A DNA stretch of 64,000 bases from an uncultured delta proteobacterium (GTDB taxonomy: Bacteria > Desulfobacterota > RBG-13-43-22), in NCBI GenBank assembly GCA_963790475.1, contig CAWBOS010000012.1, forward strand, positions 1,120,001 to 1,184,000, given 5' to 3'. The notes below the pieces were generated by a model. The model saw only the letters and a list, made by a program, of their open reading frames with translations. It made no database searches and had not been told where the DNA came from. A program made the translations under genes and the position numbers. Below, piece after piece: positions 57,155-63,539 of this stretch (position 1 is its first letter; the number at the start of each line of letters is the position of its first letter).

Positions 57155-57850
57155 TTATTTTTTTTTGAATCTCTTGATGATCTTCGGGATAAAGAGGGAA
57201 AAACTAAACAGCCCTATGGAGAGAAAGACCTTGTCTGAAAAGAGCCGACCCCAATCCCCACCAGCCCAGATTTCTTTAAGGGTACCGATAAAGAAGGTGA
57301 AGACAAAGGTGCCGACGATAATACCCAGCAGGGTTCCCCAAAAATAATCCCGGAAACGGACCCGGGTCAGGCCCATGCCAAAATCCATGGCCGTAAAAGG
57401 AAAGTAAATCAGCCGTAAATAAAGAACAGTGGCAAAACCATTTCGTTCGATGGCCTCGTCATATTTTTTGAGTTTATCCCCGATGACCGTGGCGGCGAAA
57501 TCCCTTCCCAGATATCGGCCTATAAAAAATGTAACCGTGGCCCCCAGAATGGCCCCGGCTAAAACATAGACAAATCCCCAGTAGGCTCCAAAAATCGCCG
57601 CTCCCAAAGCGGTTAAGACGGTGCCGGGCACAAAAAGACAGATGGCCAGGGTATAGATGAGAATAAAAATTACCGGTGCCCAAAAACCCGAAGCATCCAA
57701 GAATTGCTTCATTTTTCCTACCGTCAGGAATTCTTTGATCGGGGTATAACGAACCACATAAACAGCGGCCAGGATGAACATTACCAGTATGGCCGCCTTT
57801 ATCATGGCGCCTTTATGTCGTTTGGTCTTAATCTTTTCTTCTTTTCCCAT
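57155..57850 (-). CDS. TVP38/TMEM64 (VTT/DedA-superfamily) membrane protein, intact copy
   Basis: FVPGTVLTALGAAIFG, FFIGRYLGR and LRLIYFP motifs. Confidence 0.92.
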   Translation of the reverse strand: MGKEEKIKTKRHKGAMIKAAILVMFILAAVYVVRYTPIKEFLTVGKMKQFLDASGFWAPVIFILIYTLAICLFVPGTVLTALGAAIFGAYWGFVYVLAGAILGATVTFFIGRYLGRDFAATVIGDKLKKYDEAIERNGFATVLYLRLIYFPFTAMDFGMGLTRVRFRDYFWGTLLGIIVGTFVFTFFIGTLKEIWAGGDWGRLFSDKVFLSIGLFSFSLFIPKIIKRFKKK

Positions 57851-57963
57851 TTTTCCCTTTAATTTTCCCAAAAACCTCTCAGGATACTAAAAAGAGTTAG
57901 GAATTGTTAAATATTAATATGCACCATTGCTGATTTTGAATTTCTTGCCCAAAGTTTTTTGCA

Positions 57964-58018
57964 GTCATTCCGGCGAAAGCCGGAATCCAGGAATATTAAT
58001 CGTCTTGGAGGAGTGACG
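57964..58018. repeat. REP-like palindrome with a remnant second arm
   Basis: GTCATTCCGGCGAAAGCCGGAATCCAG followed by GGAGTGAC. Confidence 0.7.
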
Positions 58019-58065: not shown

Positions 58066-59094
58066 CTAAAAGGGGACTGACAATTTATTATCCGCGAAAC
58101 TCCTATTATAATACCGCGACGGGCCATCCCACACGCTCCACTCACTTTCACGGAAGATCCGCTTACAACTCTCAATCGTTTCTCCCCGGCCTTCCTCGGT
58201 CTTTGCCTCAACATCCCGCGGATTCGCGCCGACCTCCGCCCAAAAAAGGTTGGCCCCGGCTATTGCACCCAATGAACACGGCTCGTGGGTGCAGTTGCCC
58301 AATACTGTCCGCGGCATACCCAACCTGGTGACAGCAACGATCTGGGACAGGCGCAGTTCGGAGATCATGCCTCGTGAGGCAATATGAGTTCCGGGAATGG
58401 CTATGCGTCTTCCAGCGCCACTGTATGAAGGCTTGAAGGACCCCGTGAAGAGTATGGCTTCCGCCAGTTCATCGTTCGTATGTTCCGGTCCGACCGGTTC
58501 CACACAGGTTCCCACACCCAGCCCAGCCTCTTGGAAGTTCCGAATGCTGTTCTTTCTCGCGTTTGGCGACAGGGTAGTATCCAACCCTTCCCTCAGGCGA
58601 AGGGCGTGATAAACCCCGGAGTAGCCCGTTTTCTTGATTTGATTGGCATGCTCAAGGGACTGGTCCCCGACATTGGCGATCATCATGGTATCGGACTTCA
58701 AATTACGCCGAATTTCCTGAGAGATCTCGATAAACAATTCGAAGGGGTAGTGCGCGGTGGACATGATGTAAATGGCGTTGGCTCCTTCGGTTTCAAACTG
58801 CTTTGCATAACGGACAGCCTGCTCCGGGCTCAGCCGGGTTTCCTCCTTGAAGATGCCGTTGCTCTGTGCAAATGAACAGAATTGGCAGTTGCAGAGACAA
58901 GGGGCAAGGTTGAGTGCGAGTTGGGCATGCACTTCGGCTTTGTTCTGAGTCAGCTCTTTGGATAGACGATTAGCCTCAGCCATGATCTGGTAGGTTTCCG
59001 GGGAGTCCACGGGATAGCTTAACATCTGTACCAGTTCCAATTTCGTAAAAGGTTCATCCTCACCGGACTTCCGTAAAGAATTTTTGATTTTCAA
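58066..59094 (-). CDS. BioB-like radical SAM protein (copy 2)
   Basis: CLCNCQFC cluster motif, YHALRLREG, TCVEPVGPEH, NCTHEPC and AEVGANPRD; TTG start at 59094. Confidence 0.88.
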   Translation of the reverse strand: MKIKNSLRKSGEDEPFTKLELVQMLSYPVDSPETYQIMAEANRLSKELTQNKAEVHAQLALNLAPCLCNCQFCSFAQSNGIFKEETRLSPEQAVRYAKQFETEGANAIYIMSTAHYPFELFIEISQEIRRNLKSDTMMIANVGDQSLEHANQIKKTGYSGVYHALRLREGLDTTLSPNARKNSIRNFQEAGLGVGTCVEPVGPEHTNDELAEAILFTGSFKPSYSGAGRRIAIPGTHIASRGMISELRLSQIVAVTRLGMPRTVLGNCTHEPCSLGAIAGANLFWAEVGANPRDVEAKTEEGRGETIESCKRIFRESEWSVWDGPSRYYNRSFADNKLSVPF

Positions 59095-59142
59095 TATGGT
59101 CCCCCGTTTCTTTGTCAAAGATATGCGAAAAACCTGCCCCTG

Positions 59143-59291
59143 TCAACGACCGAACAGGCAGCCTAACACCCCTTTCTTTTCCGGTTCCAGCGAGGTCATT
59201 CCGAGATGTTTTTGGATAATATTCTCCAGTTCACCCTCGATCACATCGGCGCCTTCCACCACGATGTCATCATCCACTATGACCGCCGGTC
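59143..59291 (-). pseudogene. 3' remnant of a second thioredoxin-like (TsoC-type) gene
   Basis: PAVIVDDDIVVEG...LEPEKKGVLGCLFGR matches the C-terminus of 60856-61152; the 5' part is deleted. Confidence 0.85.
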
Positions 59292-59710
59292 GCAAAACCA
59301 TTTCGTTCGATGGCCTCGTCATATTTTTTGAGTTTATCCCCGATGACCGTGGCGGCGAAATCCCTTCCCAGATATCGGCCGATAAAAAAGGTAACCGTGG
59401 CCCCAAGGATGGCCCCGGCTAAAACATAGATAAATCCCCAGTAGGCTCCAAAAATCGCTGCTCCCAAAGCGGTTAACACGGTGCCGGGCACAAAAAAGCA
59501 GATCCCCAGGGTATAGATGAGGATAAAAACCAGGGGGGCCCAGAAACCGGAGGTGTTTAAGAAACGTTTCATCTCCTGAAGGGTCAAAAATTCTTTGACC
59601 GGCGTGTACCGAACCACATAAATAGCAGCGACGATGAACAAAACCAGAATCGCTGCTTTTATTACAGCACCACTATGTTGCTTAGCCTTAATTTTTTTTC
59701 CGTTTTCCAT
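59292..59710 (-). pseudogene. TVP38/TMEM64 copy truncated after ...ERNGFAT
   Basis: Near-identical to the first ~140 aa of the intact copy, then joined directly to the TsoC-type remnant. Confidence 0.85.
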
Positions 59711-59768: not shown

Positions 59769-60806
59769 TTAAAAAAACTTAACAGATGCCGTTGGTTTAT
59801 TGTGCTCGGAGTCGATGTTGAAAAAACGGGAAGGGCCATCCAGTGCACCCCACTCACTTTCACGGAAGATCCGCTTACAACTCTCAATCGTTTCTCCCCG
59901 GCCTTCCTCAGCCTTTGCCTCAACATCCCGCGGATTCGCGCCGACCTCTGCCCAAAAAAGGTTGGCCCCGGCTATGGCACCCAATGAACACGGCTCGTGG
60001 GTGCAGTTGCCCAATACTGTCCGCGGCATACCCAACCTGGTGACAGCAACGATCTGGGACAGGCGCAGTTCGGAGATCATGCCTCGTGATGCCATTTGCG
60101 TTCCGGGAATGGCGATCCGTCTGGCCGCGCCGCTGAATGAAGGGTTGAAGGATCCCGTAAAGAGGATGGCTTCTGCCAGTTCTTCGTTTGAATGTTCGGG
60201 TCCGACCGGTTCCACACAGGTTCCCACACCCAGCCCAGCCTCTTGAAAGTTCCGAATGCTGTTCTTTCTCGCATCGGGCGAAAGGGTAGTATCCAACCCT
60301 TCCCTCAGGCGGAGAGCGTGATAAACCCCGGAGTAGCCTGTTTCCTTTATTTTTTTAGCCTGCTCAAGGGACTGGTCCCCCACATTGGCGATCATCATCG
60401 TATCGGCCTTCAAATGGCGACGAATTTCCTGAGAGATCTCAATATATAGTTCGAAGGGGTATTGGGCGGTAGACATGATGTATATAGCGTTGGCCCCCCC
60501 GGCTTCAAACTGCTTGGCATAACCGATGGCCTGGTCCGGGCTTAACCGAGTTTCCTCTTGGAAGATGCCGTTGCTCTGGGCAAATGAACAAAATTGGCAG
60601 TTGCAAAGGCAAGGAGCAAGATTAAGCGCGAGTTGGGCATGCACCTCGGCTTGGTTCTGAGTCAACTCTTTGGATAGACGATTCGCCTCGGCCATGATTC
60701 GGTAGTTTTCAGGTGAGTCCGCGGGATAGCTTAACATCTGTACCAGTTCCAATTTCGTAAAAGGTTCATCCTCACCGGACTTCCGTAAGAAATCTTTGAT
60801 TTTCAA
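59769..60806 (-). CDS. BioB-like radical SAM protein (copy 1)
   Basis: Same motifs as 58066-59094; colinear and highly similar apart from the C-terminal tail. Confidence 0.88.
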   Translation of the reverse strand: MKIKDFLRKSGEDEPFTKLELVQMLSYPADSPENYRIMAEANRLSKELTQNQAEVHAQLALNLAPCLCNCQFCSFAQSNGIFQEETRLSPDQAIGYAKQFEAGGANAIYIMSTAQYPFELYIEISQEIRRHLKADTMMIANVGDQSLEQAKKIKETGYSGVYHALRLREGLDTTLSPDARKNSIRNFQEAGLGVGTCVEPVGPEHSNEELAEAILFTGSFNPSFSGAARRIAIPGTQMASRGMISELRLSQIVAVTRLGMPRTVLGNCTHEPCSLGAIAGANLFWAEVGANPRDVEAKAEEGRGETIESCKRIFRESEWGALDGPSRFFNIDSEHNKPTASVKFF

Positions 60807-60855
60807 TATGGTCCCCCTGTTTCTTTGTCAAAGATATGCGAAAAGCCTGCCCCTG

Positions 60856-61152
60856 TCAACGACTGAACAGGCGGCCTAACACCCCTTTTTTTTCAGGCTC
60901 CAGCGACGGCAGCCCAAGATGCGTTCGAATGATATTTTCCAGTTTATCCTCGGCTACATTGGATCCCTCCACAACGACTTCATCGTCGACCATAACCGCC
61001 GGGGCCACGGGCAGCTCCAGTTCAAAATATTCATCTGTATTGTATTCGGATATCGGTTTGGACATTACTTCGACTTCGATATCACACTTTTGGCCCAACC
61101 TGGGCAGCATTTTTTGAAAATTCTTTCAAGGTTTTCCATTAGGTTCGTTCAT
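60856..61152 (-). CDS. tsoC: Thioredoxin-like selenoprotein with NEPxGxxU motif (UGA at 61126-61128); the N-terminus may be clipped
   Basis: ATG AAC GAA CCT AAT GGA AAA CCT TGA AAG is in frame with ORF 60856-61110 (APAVMVDDE); hairpin GCCCA-GGT-TGGGC follows. The symbol comes from recall of the NCBIfam motif name. Confidence 0.75.
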
Positions 61153-61164
61153 AAAACTCAGGAA

Positions 61165-61391
61165 CTAATCCTTCTTGAATTTCTTGATGATCTCCGGAAT
61201 GAATAGGGAAAAAATAAACAGGGCCAACGAAAGAAAACCTTAGGTCCCGGCAATGATTCCCAGGAAGGTCCACCAAAAATAATCCAAAACCGGACCCGGG
61301 TGAGCCCCATGCCTAAATTCATGACCGTAAAAAGGAAGTAAACCAATCGTAAATAGAGGACCGTGTAAAAACCGTTCCTCTCAATGGCTTC
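61165..61391 (-). pseudogene. Degraded 3' fragment of a third TVP38/TMEM64 copy
   Basis: EAIERNGFYTVLYLRLVYFLFTVMNLGMGLTRVRF...IIKKFKKD* with frameshifts. Confidence 0.8.
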
Positions 61392-61701
61392 AAAAGGTCA
61401 AAATCTTATCCGCCTCTTTGGCGATTTCATATAAATCATCCATCCAACCGATGGGGCAACTGCTTGATCCCTCCAGACCGTGGGATTTCATGCAGACCCC
61501 TCAGACATAGAAGTCCCCTCCAAATTGGTTGATCTGCTCCATTACATTGAATTGTTCCGTGCCAGCCTGTTCAAAAAGGACCCCCTTCCCCAGCATGAAC
61601 ACGCTGATTTCATCCCCCTTCTTCACGCCGACGTTAGCCAACCGCATGGCATTATAAATGGACTCTCCATCGTTGGTGGTAATGATAAACAAAAATTTCA
61701 T
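61390..61701 (-). CDS. DsrE-family selenoprotein, UxxC motif (UGA at 61501-61503), 103 aa
   Basis: FYV-TGA-GVCMKSHGLEGSSSCPIGWMDDLYEIAKEADKILTF* completes a canonical DsrE fold; U sits at the conserved CxxC position. Confidence 0.88.
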
Positions 61702-61970
61702 GTTTTGACTCCTTTCAAAATTTTACCCGCCAGAAAAATATCCATTTTATCCTTATCGGTTGCAATATCGATGGGCACCAATTCATTTTCAAAAATTACA
61801 TTGGTCGAACTTTTAAATTGATACTTTTTTGCTTCCTCCGAGTCTGTGGTGTAGAAATTTAATTTTAATTGTTCTCCATACTTTTCTTCCATCGCTTTAG
61901 CCACACCTATGGCCTTTTTGCAAGTCATTCAGGCCGGGTTTCCGCTTTGAAAAACAATTAACCTTCTCAT
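61698..61970 (-). CDS. tsoX: Thioredoxin-like selenoprotein, SGNPxUxxC motif (UGA at 61929-61931), 90 aa
   Basis: AGGAGG SD, then MRRLIVFQSGNPA-TGA-MTCKKA in frame with ORF 61698-61928; ATGA overlap with the DsrE gene. The symbol comes from recall of the NCBIfam motif name. Confidence 0.85.
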
Positions 61971-62022
61971 AACCAACGACCTCCTACTGATTATTATTTA
62001 ATCTCTGAAGAATCCTTCTCTT

Positions 62023-62478
62023 TTAAATCCTTCCTTCCCGCTGAAGCTTGGTCATCAGGAAGTTTGCTCCGGATCGTGACATTCCAAGGAACTCCGCCAA
62101 TTGAACCGGGTCCGTTATTCGATCGGTCCTGAAGGCCGCAACTACTTCCTCTTCTACTTCGTCCAGCCAGTTTTCAAACAGCCCCAGAATTTCTGGTTCG
62201 GCCACCCCTTTAAGCTGTTTGGACTGAAAGACCTTATCCACCAGACTCTGGCACATGTGCGTCGGATCGACACCTTCGTCCATGCACTCGGCCAGTCAGA
62301 GGTGGACCAAGCTGGAAACCTTATCCGTATCAGCATCTCCTATCAGATTCATTACAAAATCCAAAGGGACCTGTTCCTCAATAAGGGGGAAGATCTTTTT
62401 AATGATAGAGGCCATCTCCTTCAAAGCTTCTTCTGGCGCCAACTGATCGATGATTTGTTGTAGAGTTTTATTTTCCAT
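62023..62478 (-). CDS. tsoA: Selenoprotein with LULAxC motif (UGA at 62296-62298) and a C-terminal HTH-like end, 151 aa
   Basis: GGAGG SD; MENK...SSLVHL-TGA-LAECMDEGVDPTHMCQ joins two ORF-track ORFs in one frame. The symbol comes from recall of the NCBIfam motif name. Confidence 0.85.
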
Positions 62479-62494
62479 ACCATCCTCCCCTTGA

Positions 62495-62830
62495 TTAAAA
62501 AGATTTCCGATTGGCCAATAAAACATCGGCCAGAGTTTGCAAGTCTCGCAGAATAGGAACAATTCGTTGATCCGCCATTTCGTAATAAATGAAGGGGCCA
62601 TTTCTTTCCACCTTAACAAGCAGCGACCTCTTCAGCTCTTTCAGGTGATGGGAAACCAGGGGTTGGGAGAGTTTCAACTCCTCCACAATACGAGAAACAG
62701 ATTCTTTCCCATTGCTTAATAACAGAAGAATCCTCAAGCGGTTCTCATCCGAAAGGCTTTTAGCCAAAAAAGCGATGGTGGACAGATCTTCGGCCCATTG
62801 TGGTTTTTCCGATCGTTCTGTTTTCGACAC
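62495..62830 (-). CDS. ArsR/SmtB-family regulator heading the selenoprotein operon (TsoR-like)
   Basis: KSLSDENRLRIL, LSQPLVSHHLKEL and ERNG..IYY. Confidence 0.92.
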   Translation of the reverse strand: MSKTERSEKPQWAEDLSTIAFLAKSLSDENRLRILLLLSNGKESVSRIVEELKLSQPLVSHHLKELKRSLLVKVERNGPFIYYEMADQRIVPILRDLQTLADVLLANRKSF

Positions 62831-62987
62831 TCTTTTACCCTTTCTTTGAATCAGTTAAACTGCTTCTTGATGAAAAAAAATAGCCACCCCATTAATCATT
62901 TGCCAGGGCACGTTCCTTTTGGCTATTGTCAGGAGAGTCGTAGTATTTTCTCCTTACAAACACTTTATACATAAACATATTAATTGT

Positions 62988-63016
62988 AATTTATATATTG
63001 ATGATTCCTTTGTCAA
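62988..63016 (-). promoter_or_regulatory. Sigma70 promoter for the selenoprotein operon
   Basis: TTGACA-17 nt-TAAATT on the minus strand, back-to-back with the plus-strand TTGACA at 63044. Confidence 0.55.
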
Positions 63017-63107: not shown

Positions 63108-63539
63108 ATGGAAATCCACTTAGATCCCCATGAAATGTTTAAAGTATTATCCGTGCCGACAAGGGTTAAAATTATGGAGCTATTAAAATCCGAAGGGCCA
63201 TTGGGGGTAAAGGATATTTCCGGGAAGATGGCCGTCACACCGGCGGCCGTGTCCCAGCATCTGAAATTGTTGAGGCAGGCGGGTCTGGTGACCAGTGAAA
63301 GAAAAGGGTACTGGATACCCTATTCGGTCAATGAAGCGGCCCTGGAAAACTATCGGCAGGTGTTCAATCAAGTCTGCACCTGCGGGTGTCAGGAATCCTG
63401 TCGGCTCAGCGAACGGGGATCGGAAAGGTTGAGTTTAGAGTCCCTGAAGGATTATGAGAAGGACCTGAAAAAGGAACTGAAAACAATCAAAGAAAGGATT
63501 CGAGCATTGGAATCTCAGGTGGCCACACAAGAGAAGTAA
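63108..63539 (+). CDS. ArsR/SmtB-family regulator with a C-terminal Cys cluster and coiled coil
   Basis: FKVLSVPTRVKI, AVSQHLKLLRQAGLV and VCTCGCQESC, then LKDYEKDLKKELKTIKERI. Confidence 0.92.
   Translation: MEIHLDPHEMFKVLSVPTRVKIMELLKSEGPLGVKDISGKMAVTPAAVSQHLKLLRQAGLVTSERKGYWIPYSVNEAALENYRQVFNQVCTCGCQESCRLSERGSERLSLESLKDYEKDLKKELKTIKERIRALESQVATQEK

Follow-up and report, generated by a model that had tools for sequence, protein, structure and literature searches.

A stretch of 64,000 nucleotides (nt) from an uncultured delta proteobacterium (assembly GCA_963790475.1, contig CAWBOS010000012.1, positions 1,120,001 to 1,184,000; hereafter the window) contains a genuine set of four selenocysteine (Sec, U)-encoding genes, tsoA, tsoX, a dsrE-like gene and tsoC, within the catalogued Tso selenoprotein neighbourhood (Tso standing for 'three selenoprotein operon'). 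The locus is a rearranged variant of the known Tso system, without TsoB or TsoY, and no new class of system. Taken as a whole, the explanation developed here, a Tso Sec cluster in a composite locus together with a proposed relay and its regulation, is probably right, and its parts are weighed separately below.

Four genes with an in-frame selenocysteine codon

The four genes and the regulator that precedes them all lie on the minus strand:

62830-62495 (-): tsoR, ArsR/SmtB-type regulator of 111 amino acids (aa), no Cys; NF045707 and Pfam HTH_5
62478-62023 (-): tsoA, 151-aa selenoprotein; TGA 62298-62296 is U61; C65 and C76; SECIS-like hairpin (SECIS, selenocysteine insertion sequence) at 62263-62282
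61970-61698 (-): tsoX, 90-aa selenoprotein of thioredoxin fold; TGA 61931-61929 is U14 (UxxC); SECIS-like hairpin at 61899-61914
61701-61390 (-): DsrE-like gene, 103-aa selenoprotein; TGA 61503-61501 is U67 (UGVC); SECIS-like hairpin at 61467-61486
61152-60856 (-): tsoC, 98-aa selenoprotein; TGA 61128-61126 is U9; SECIS-like hairpin at 61093-61105

A preliminary description, made from the letters of this DNA, had reported four small co-oriented genes with one in-frame TGA each. We found all four TGAs where it had placed them, in exactly the contexts that it quoted (VHL-U-LAEC, QSGNPA-U-MTC, FYV-U-GVC and NEPNGKP-U). The Cys that it saw 3-4 residues after U in three proteins stands at +4 in TsoA and at +3 in TsoX and the DsrE-like protein, TsoC having none, and the Shine-Dalgarno sites that it saw before tsoA and tsoX are GGAGG and AGGAGG, 6-8 nt upstream of the ATGs. 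The tsoA ATG follows the tsoR stop at a distance of 16 nt, and the start of dsrE and the stop of tsoX overlap in the sequence ATGA. Calling open reading frames (ORFs) with genetic code table 11 also reproduced the breaking or shortening of all four genes: TsoA becomes 107 + 86 aa, TsoX 76 aa, the DsrE-like protein 66 + 33 aa and TsoC 84 aa.

The Tso system comprises TsoR (NF045707), TsoA (NF045695), TsoB (NF045694) and TsoC (NF045708), with TsoX (NF045809) and TsoY (NF047643) as associated families. Scored with U read as C and with the curated NCBIfam cut-offs, TsoA reaches 221.3 bits (cut-off 170), TsoX 129.8 bits (52), TsoC 130.8 bits (45) and TsoR 163.8 bits (115), so that the TsoA, TsoX and TsoC family names, which the preliminary description had given, were correct. 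The Sec motifs LULAEC, SGNPAU and NEPNGKPU agree with these families; that of TsoX reads QSGNPAU-MT-C, the H of the family being Q in the window and E in the related genome G031. On read-through, the DsrE-like protein covers the whole Pfam DsrE model (42.6 bits, cut-off 22.7, model positions 1-116 of 116), as expected of a complete DsrE fold. It matches no Tso model in NCBIfam, its sole match there being to the DsrE-like end of YedF (23.8 bits, cut-off 110).

The thioredoxin-like N-termini claimed earlier stood for TsoX in a structural model; TsoC has only sub-cut-off matches to thioredoxin families. Indeed, the AlphaFold 2 (AF2) model of TsoX, with a predicted local distance difference test (pLDDT) value of 87.2, places U14 just ahead of helix 15-34, and Foldseek aligns it to thioredoxins at E 4e-4 to 3e-3 with template modelling (TM) scores of 0.55-0.72. 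The model thus describes TsoX, which has no Pfam match, as a thioredoxin fold with its redox motif at the N-terminus of helix 1. TsoC, which has a single U, scores 21.1 bits with Thioredoxin_3 (cut-off 24.8) and 19.7 bits with TIGR00412 (cut-off 62). When the DsrE-like protein, TsoC and TsoX were searched by sequence against solved structures, the outcome was zero matches, one match at E 0.31 and chance capsid matches, none of them meaningful.

To compare codons at the Sec column we used 20 loci around TsoA genes, taken from a 401-genome sample of the phylum, plus the window (21 loci). The column is TGA in 23/23 TsoA genes, in 5/5 TsoX genes and in all 12 TsoC genes that cover it; the TsoC count omits one copy frameshifted at the column (L082) and the second copy of the window, a fragment that stops short of it. 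The 13 DsrE homologues have TGA in seven cases and TGC in six, a mixture that reads as a classical Sec/Cys pair. The preliminary description had made its proposal depend on a Sec or Cys column with conservation on both sides of the codon, and this is found in all four families (identities 30-91%). Judged from these alignments, the conserved TGA columns far exceed chance. In the 401-genome sample, exactly one TGA occurs in 41/46 TsoA matches, the other five being partial and short of the Sec column, and one occurs in all 10/10 TsoX matches.

Each TGA is followed by a conserved hairpin starting 17-24 nt downstream, with the loops AGGUG, AGGU, GGUCUG and GGU. A bacterial SECIS is a hairpin located soon after the UGA and having a G in its apical loop, and the four hairpins are predicted to be of this kind, with GGU-type loops. 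No SECIS model was matched in an Rfam scan of 60700-62900 (E <= 10), which gave only three chance matches to small nucleolar or long non-coding RNAs, and the hairpins were therefore judged by their folds and covariation. In TsoA, each of seven pairs is formed in 20-23 of the 23 sequences and pair 20-33 covaries (A-U in 18, G-C in 5). In TsoX, 96.7% of cells are paired against 13-52% in slid controls, and U-A changes to C-G at two synonymous sites (6 vs 4 sequences). The DsrE stem is kept in 7/7 Sec forms, one pair being C-G in five and U-A in two, and its upper part is lost in 6/6 Cys forms. Finally, the five core pairs of the TsoC hairpin (GCCCA-GGU-UGGGC) are formed in 12/12 genes.

The machinery for Sec insertion, named earlier as a further check, is present in the genome: selA (629.5 bits), selB (390.6), selD (394.1) and tRNA-Sec (74.3). 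The selD gene itself has an in-frame TGA. The selA loci are G000:C13:443305-444664 and G000:C20:490-1848 (G000 being the genome of the window); one copy, on a 3.2-kb contig, is intact and the second, on contig 13, lies in four pieces in different frames with one TAA. Among the differences listed for independent metagenome reads (four runs, with short low-depth contigs that cover the cluster partly), none falls at the four TGAs.

A Trp or a stop at the Sec column had been named beforehand as what would speak against Sec, and public protein databases do contain such forms of the DsrE-like protein. Most of the entries P0008-P0127 are stubs of about 66 aa that stop at the TGA, and among 13 aligned full-length homologues the column is W in 12 and C in one (P0018), the W-bearing forms deriving from short contigs. 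We scanned metagenome contigs for this subfamily with a pattern that permitted TGA or TGG at the column: the codon was TGA in 120/120 matches and TGG in none, and 6 or 7 of the 7 hairpin pairs were kept in 115 of the 120. The W is therefore best read as an artefact of translation under a Trp-reading code. The 66-aa stubs and W forms of Sec-DsrE make up a systematic annotation artefact in public databases. Altogether, the view that these TGAs either terminate split or defunct genes or encode Trp is effectively refuted by the metagenome codons, the Cys found in its place in six genomic DsrE homologues and in P0018, the conservation past the codon in four families, the covarying hairpins and the Sec machinery, and we leave it almost no probability.

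A composite and partly duplicated locus

Two main arrangements of Tso genes were found in the sample. TsoB-type loci have the order TsoR-TsoA-(TsoX)-TsoB-TsoC-(radical SAM)-VTT/DedA-DsrC-like, SAM being S-adenosylmethionine (G258, G199, G070, G312, G169, G051, G009 and G264). DsrE-type loci have the order TsoR-TsoA-(TsoX)-DsrE, with DsrE in its Sec or Cys form (G031, G220, G288, G278, G329, G058, G061, G281 and G098). A third, minimal arrangement, TsoR-TsoA-TsoC with neither TsoB nor DsrE between, is seen in G221 (L071:7578-8787). The head of the window, TsoR-TsoA-TsoX-DsrE(Sec), reads as DsrE-type, and its tail, TsoC-radical SAM-VTT/DedA-DsrC-like, as TsoB-type. Apart from tsoC, the tail consists of the following features:

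61168-61391 (-): 3' fragment of a VTT/DedA (TVP38)-type gene, frameshifted, beginning at the dsrE stop codon; found by tblastn with the full copy
59769-60806 (-): radical SAM copy 1, 345 aa, CLCNCQFC motif, of BioB/HydE/PylB-like kind, no curated family
59270-59710 (-): 5' half of a second VTT/DedA-type gene, broken after ...AIERNGFAT; 83% identity to residues 5-148 of the full copy
59146-59304 (-): 3' fragment of a second tsoC, residues 46-98, without the Sec codon; tblastn 66% identity; NF045708 30.5 bits, below cut-off
58066-59118 (-): radical SAM copy 2, 350 aa, 88% identical to copy 1
57155-57871 (-): intact VTT/DedA (TVP38)-type membrane protein, 238 aa; Pfam VTT_dom 92.2 bits
56687-57016 (-): DsrC/TusE-like protein, 109 aa; inner Cys (TCKIAG) kept, C-terminus GYDLM without Cys

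After DsrE(Sec) the genes thus run: VTT 3' fragment, tsoC, radical SAM copy 1, VTT 5' half, tsoC 3' fragment, radical SAM copy 2, intact VTT gene and DsrC/TusE-like gene. The stretch that separates dsrE from tsoC measures 237 nt and holds the first VTT fragment, whose tblastn match covers residues 139-173 at 83% identity and, in another frame, residues 158-238 at 40%. DNA repeats between the tail units are 82-91% identical; D1 and D3 lie at the radical SAM copies, and the direct repeats D4 and D5 at the VTT 3' fragment. The tail between 59146 and 61391 resembles a circularly permuted duplication of a TsoC-radical SAM-VTT unit, in which the two VTT genes are broken at one and the same AIERNGF site: this site opens the fragment at the dsrE stop and closes the other copy, which continues into the tsoC 3' fragment. 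A hairpin element, TTCCGGCGAAAGCCGGAA, lies at 57957-57995 between radical SAM copy 2 and the VTT gene. Two metagenome runs cover it at summed contig depths of 745.7 and 243.7 and show many different loose ends to its left and right; it is a short palindromic repeat present in many genomes.

The members of the tail have counterparts elsewhere. A gene corresponding to the intact VTT/DedA gene follows TsoC in seven other TsoB-type loci, and copies of the DsrC/TusE-like protein at 78-83% identity close the TsoB-type loci L078, L079, L081 and L082. The DsrC/TusE-like protein scores 63.5 bits with Pfam DsrC and 62 bits with TIGR03342 (cut-off 53.5). We take the reactive Cys of DsrC/TusE to be the terminal one, in an ending of the PKPTGCV type, and the window protein is without it.

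TsoB follows TsoA in 25/30 sampled genomes with TsoA over cut-off. It is found over cut-off in 25/401 genomes, and all 29 such rows have 2 TGA. TsoB was not found in the window's genome, the best match in the whole 6.34-Mb assembly being 56.5 bits for a cut-off of 805. The TsoY model (cut-off 250) also gave no match in this genome; the model does work, since it scores 418-443 bits on L066, L068 and L069, in the scanned Sec-DsrE loci of G031, G220 and G278. The ORFs scanned in G288 and G061 gave no TsoY.

Among relatives that share this head, G031 is the closest, with 91% identity for DsrE, 85% for a second ArsR-family regulator (described below) and 67% for a following protein of 945 aa. Its locus passes from DsrE(Sec) straight to the 945-aa protein, and the whole tail is absent. 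Upstream of tsoR, G031 has a block of DUF2284, a NapH/HgcB-like ferredoxin, TsoY and a Cys-form DsrE (L066:4317-7539) that is missing from the window's genome.

The single four-gene operon first proposed was partly borne out: the four Sec genes are indeed neighbouring and co-oriented, and the stretch with the VTT fragment lies between dsrE and tsoC, in a combination that is not conserved. As DsrE(Sec) and TsoC occur together in no other of the 21 loci and a pseudogene fragment separates dsrE from tsoC, the four genes may not act as one unit.

The earlier suggestion that a relay feeds the adjacent radical SAM enzyme was found to be weak. Copy 1 scores 29.3 bits with Pfam Radical_SAM (cut-off 29.5), its best NCBIfam match is BioB (46.7 vs 225) and no match to TrsS was listed; it appears to be a member of an unnamed family. 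Matches at 56% identity or more were found in 21/401 sampled genomes, nearly all without TsoA, and the enzyme stands beside a Tso locus in 2/30 genomes with TsoA over cut-off (G000 and G070). In G229 it adjoins a VTT gene; the in-frame TGA of that orthologue was rejected as a Sec codon, being an ordinary stop. Among nine radical SAM loci outside G000 and G070, two are beside YedF (TIGR03527, 165.7 and 205.9 bits), two beside a rhodanese gene and three beside a family-2 glycosyltransferase gene. Since 3/9 of these loci in all place the enzyme by YedF or rhodanese, it may be linked to chalcogen carriers: the enzyme is no Tso component but may be a user of such a carrier. The neighbours of its orthologues in genomes without TsoA (L091:2723-3322, L093:2694-3305 and L097:2741-3283) include YedF, a TusA-DsrE fusion named 'selenium metabolism protein', rhodanese-domain proteins and glycosyltransferases, one rhodanese neighbour being nearest to the 'rhodanese near glycosyltransferase' model, below its cut-off. 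The set of radical SAM, YedF or rhodanese and glycosyltransferase may represent a separate sulfur- or selenium-dependent pathway.

Regulation and a possible chalcogen relay

Two further features lie upstream of tsoR:

63016-62988 (-): promoter-like site TTGACA-17-TAAATT, overlapped by a candidate TsoR operator at 62977-62996
63108-63539 (+): second ArsR-family regulator, divergent from tsoR, Cys-rich (CTCGCQESC) with a coiled-coil tail; NF033788 82.7 bits

In a consensus scan, TTGACA-17-TAAATT matched 10/12 and was the best promoter-like site. Its predicted -10 box is overlapped by an 8-4-8 inverted repeat, ATATAAAT-N4-ATTAATAT. In the form ATATAAAT-N4-ATTTATAT with at most two mismatches, the repeat occurs upstream of tsoR in 12/23 regions, and 31 times in the 339,981 nt of all loci, with two matches in the 64-kb window. 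We infer that it is a candidate operator for TsoR. Another palindrome, guessed from loose-end letters of reads, had no match in the window.

The proposal that the ArsR protein senses metal(loid)s or sulfur found no support for TsoR. Since Cys is absent from the window protein and no Cys position is conserved among 22 sequences, TsoR lacks the usual thiolate sensing sites; its invariant residues belong to the fold and to the recognition helix, no His/Asp/Glu metal site was recognised in TsoR, and the thiolate and alpha5 residues of metal sensors were not found. Without a conserved Cys or a recognised metal site, sensing by TsoR, if there is any, must be indirect, which makes TsoA a candidate sensor. 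The tsoR gene is directly upstream of tsoA in 23/23 TsoA genes, whatever follows. The second ArsR-family regulator has homologues beside Tso loci in L066 (85%), L084 (58%) and L083 (54%), in genomes G031, G009 and G051, and may be what actually senses metal(loid)s or thiols in this region.

In TsoA, U61 and C65 are invariant and C76 is conserved in at least 90% of sequences. Its AF2 model is all-helical (pLDDT 77) with a C-terminus that resembles a helix-turn-helix (HTH) unit: the last 50 residues (pLDDT about 90) align with HTH units of Lrp/AsnC, DeoR and IclR at Z 6-7.2, with root-mean-square deviations of 1.3-2.3 over 45-53 residues, and Pfam HTH_24 matches at E 0.005. For the N-terminal Sec-bearing helices, which were barely probed, no known fold was found.

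We tentatively propose that the cluster may encode a cytoplasmic selenol-based relay for sulfane sulfur or selenium, repressed by TsoR and with TsoA as its likeliest sensor, a possibility that we hold at somewhat less than even strength. The relay is inferred from the recurrence of sulfur-carrier families in Tso loci and from the thioredoxin fold of TsoX. Around Tso genes these families are the rhodanese-like part of TsoB, rhodanese, DsrE and DsrC/TusE; positions 47-164 of the TsoB model (rhodanese-like) match Sec-containing rhodanese-like ORFs, and a rhodanese gene adjoins DsrE(Sec) in G278 (L069). In such a relay, U67/C70 of the DsrE-like protein would carry the chalcogen as a selenosulfide, for onward transfer or reduction by TsoX (UxxC, thioredoxin fold) and TsoC (single U). 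The DsrC/TusE-like protein would act as the customary partner of DsrE and the VTT/DedA protein as the membrane component. With TsoB missing, these separate proteins would substitute for its rhodanese, DsbD-like and thioredoxin-like parts. TsoR would repress the promoter at the ATATAAAT-N4-ATTAATAT palindrome, and TsoA, with U61, C65, C76 and its HTH-like three-helix C-terminal unit, always encoded after tsoR, would be the likeliest sensor or adaptor to relieve this repression.

Several points weigh against this explanation. The palindrome was not found in 11/23 tsoR upstream regions and is AT-rich like any promoter region. The HTH likeness of TsoA is below the trust level of the tool (Z < 8) and possibly a common arrangement of helices, and Foldseek gave no match to the TsoA model at E <= 0.001. 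The proposed function is drawn from family associations, and the neighbours of some relatives hint at metal(loid) chemistry. Only 1 of the 21 loci, that of the window, combines DsrE(Sec) with TsoC, and with TsoB and TsoY missing the system could be crippled. Finally, the assembly has an estimated contamination of 9.68%, and no independent public contig bridges the joint between dsrE and the VTT fragment by 31 letters (four metagenome runs, short pieces), so that an assembly chimera could account for some of the arrangement.

Some of these points favour an explanation in which the Sec genes are real and their grouping in a row arose by chance, through rearrangement or metagenome assembly, which placed two unrelated modules side by side without any cooperation between them, the tail being perhaps in decay. 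The broken VTT and TsoC copies at the joints, the shared AIERNGF break, the tail-less locus of G031, the promoter-like site ahead of each radical SAM gene, the missing TsoB and TsoY and the contamination are all consistent with it. Nonetheless, tsoC is intact, and its Sec codon and hairpin core pairs are identical to those of all 11 other TsoC genes. Moreover, the duplicated units differ from one another, where a trivial assembly error should give identical copies. Head and tail modules also do mix in nature, as the TsoB-type locus of G264 also has TsoX and a Cys-DsrE adjoins the TsoB-type locus of G051. We consider an accidental grouping rather unlikely, if worth keeping in mind.

The relay must also be weighed against the handling of metal(loid)s or organometal(loid)s (As, Hg, Se, Te) under ArsR-family control, which would involve no sulfur or selenium relay. 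Sec/Cys pairs would then be soft-metal ligands, TsoA a U-x3-C...C metallochaperone or sensor, and the thioredoxin-fold proteins reductants. Two ArsR-family genes flank the promoter region, and the second, with its CTCGCQESC motif, recurs beside Tso loci in three other genomes. The neighbours of relatives include an ArsC-type arsenate reductase (L073), DUF2284 with a NapH/HgcB-like ferredoxin (L066) and a piece of an ArsM-like methyltransferase (L067), and a DedA protein is linked to selenite uptake in a review (PMC11422209). These metal-related neighbours are, however, scattered, one locus each, whereas the recurrent partners are the sulfur-carrier families DsrE, DsrC/TusE and rhodanese. In addition, the window cluster has no efflux pump, no arsenite transporter and no mer or ars structural gene, and TsoR itself is without thiolate ligands. 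Altogether, we judge a metal(loid) function to be unlikely.

Relation to known selenoprotein systems and significance

The cluster had been described as hidden; it is neither hidden from current annotation models nor new. A review (PMC13188914) credits Haft & Tolstoy (2025) with finding the selenoproteins TsoA, TsoB, TsoC, TsoX and TsoY, under the same NCBIfam accessions, and also lists, on the basis of earlier work, a DsrE-like UxxC protein among the predicted prokaryotic selenoproteins. It describes the functions of these selenoproteins as largely uncharacterised. As the Tso families have been published and curated, NCBI models already name three of the four Sec proteins. With the known Tso system the window shares TsoR, TsoA, TsoX and TsoC over their cut-offs, the Sec motifs and the adjacency of tsoR and tsoA seen with 22 other TsoA genes. 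It differs in that the double-Sec rhodanese/DsbD-like fusion TsoB and TsoY were not found in the genome, that Sec-DsrE and TsoC occur in one locus, that the tail is duplicated and partly broken, and that TsoX has Q for H.

The window's DsrE-like protein shares the DsrE fold (PF02635), the U-G-x-C motif and the Sec/Cys exchange at this column with the DsrE-like UxxC selenoprotein; the difference is that the Sec form occurs with TsoR-TsoA in the window and six other loci, directly after TsoA or TsoX in G031, G220 and G288. The DsrEFH/TusBCD proteins together with DsrC/TusE form a sulfur relay. As in that relay, the cluster combines genes for a DsrE-family carrier and for a DsrC/TusE-family protein, and persulfide-type transfer would be the natural reading. 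In contrast, the window has a single small DsrE-like protein with Sec in UGxC, no DsrF or DsrH, a DsrC-like protein with the inner Cys only, and no tRNA thiolation or Dsr genes nearby. TsoR has the winged-helix fold and HTH_5 domain of ArsR/SmtB metalloregulators and, if the palindrome is its operator, a palindromic site overlapping the promoter, but it differs from them by having no conserved Cys and no recognised His/Asp/Glu site.

The Sec-assisted organometallic (SAO) system, attributed to Haft & Gwadz 2023 in the same review (PMC13188914), is likewise a multi-selenoprotein operon from comparative genomics that includes a thioredoxin-like Sec protein and whose function is inferred only. It consists of other families than the window cluster, which has none of the ABC (ATP-binding cassette) transporter components of SAO.

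The window provides a clean, well-controlled case of four Sec genes in a row and shows the damage that gene callers do to such genes. Furthermore, in the Tso neighbourhood the comparison separates a regulatory pair that stays constant, TsoR-TsoA, from cargo modules that can be exchanged. It also yields a candidate operator and a Sec/Cys motif in TsoA as concrete targets.

The most speculative part of our proposal, which we consider improbable as it stands, is that TsoA acts as a Sec-based sensor or co-regulator that frees the Cys-free TsoR from the ATATAAAT-N4-ATTTATAT operator. The invariant U61-x3-C65 motif, together with C76, would react with the substrate of the system, be it a persulfide or polysulfide, a selenium species or a soft metalloid, and the HTH-like C-terminus of TsoA would then release TsoR from the operator. 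If this were true, the separate DsrE(Sec), thioredoxin-fold and VTT proteins of the window would take the place of the fused TsoB, and the TsoR-TsoA pair would drive an exchangeable cargo, either TsoB/TsoC, DsrE/TsoX/TsoY or a mixture as in the window. TsoA and TsoR would then constitute the first Sec-dependent transcription switch.

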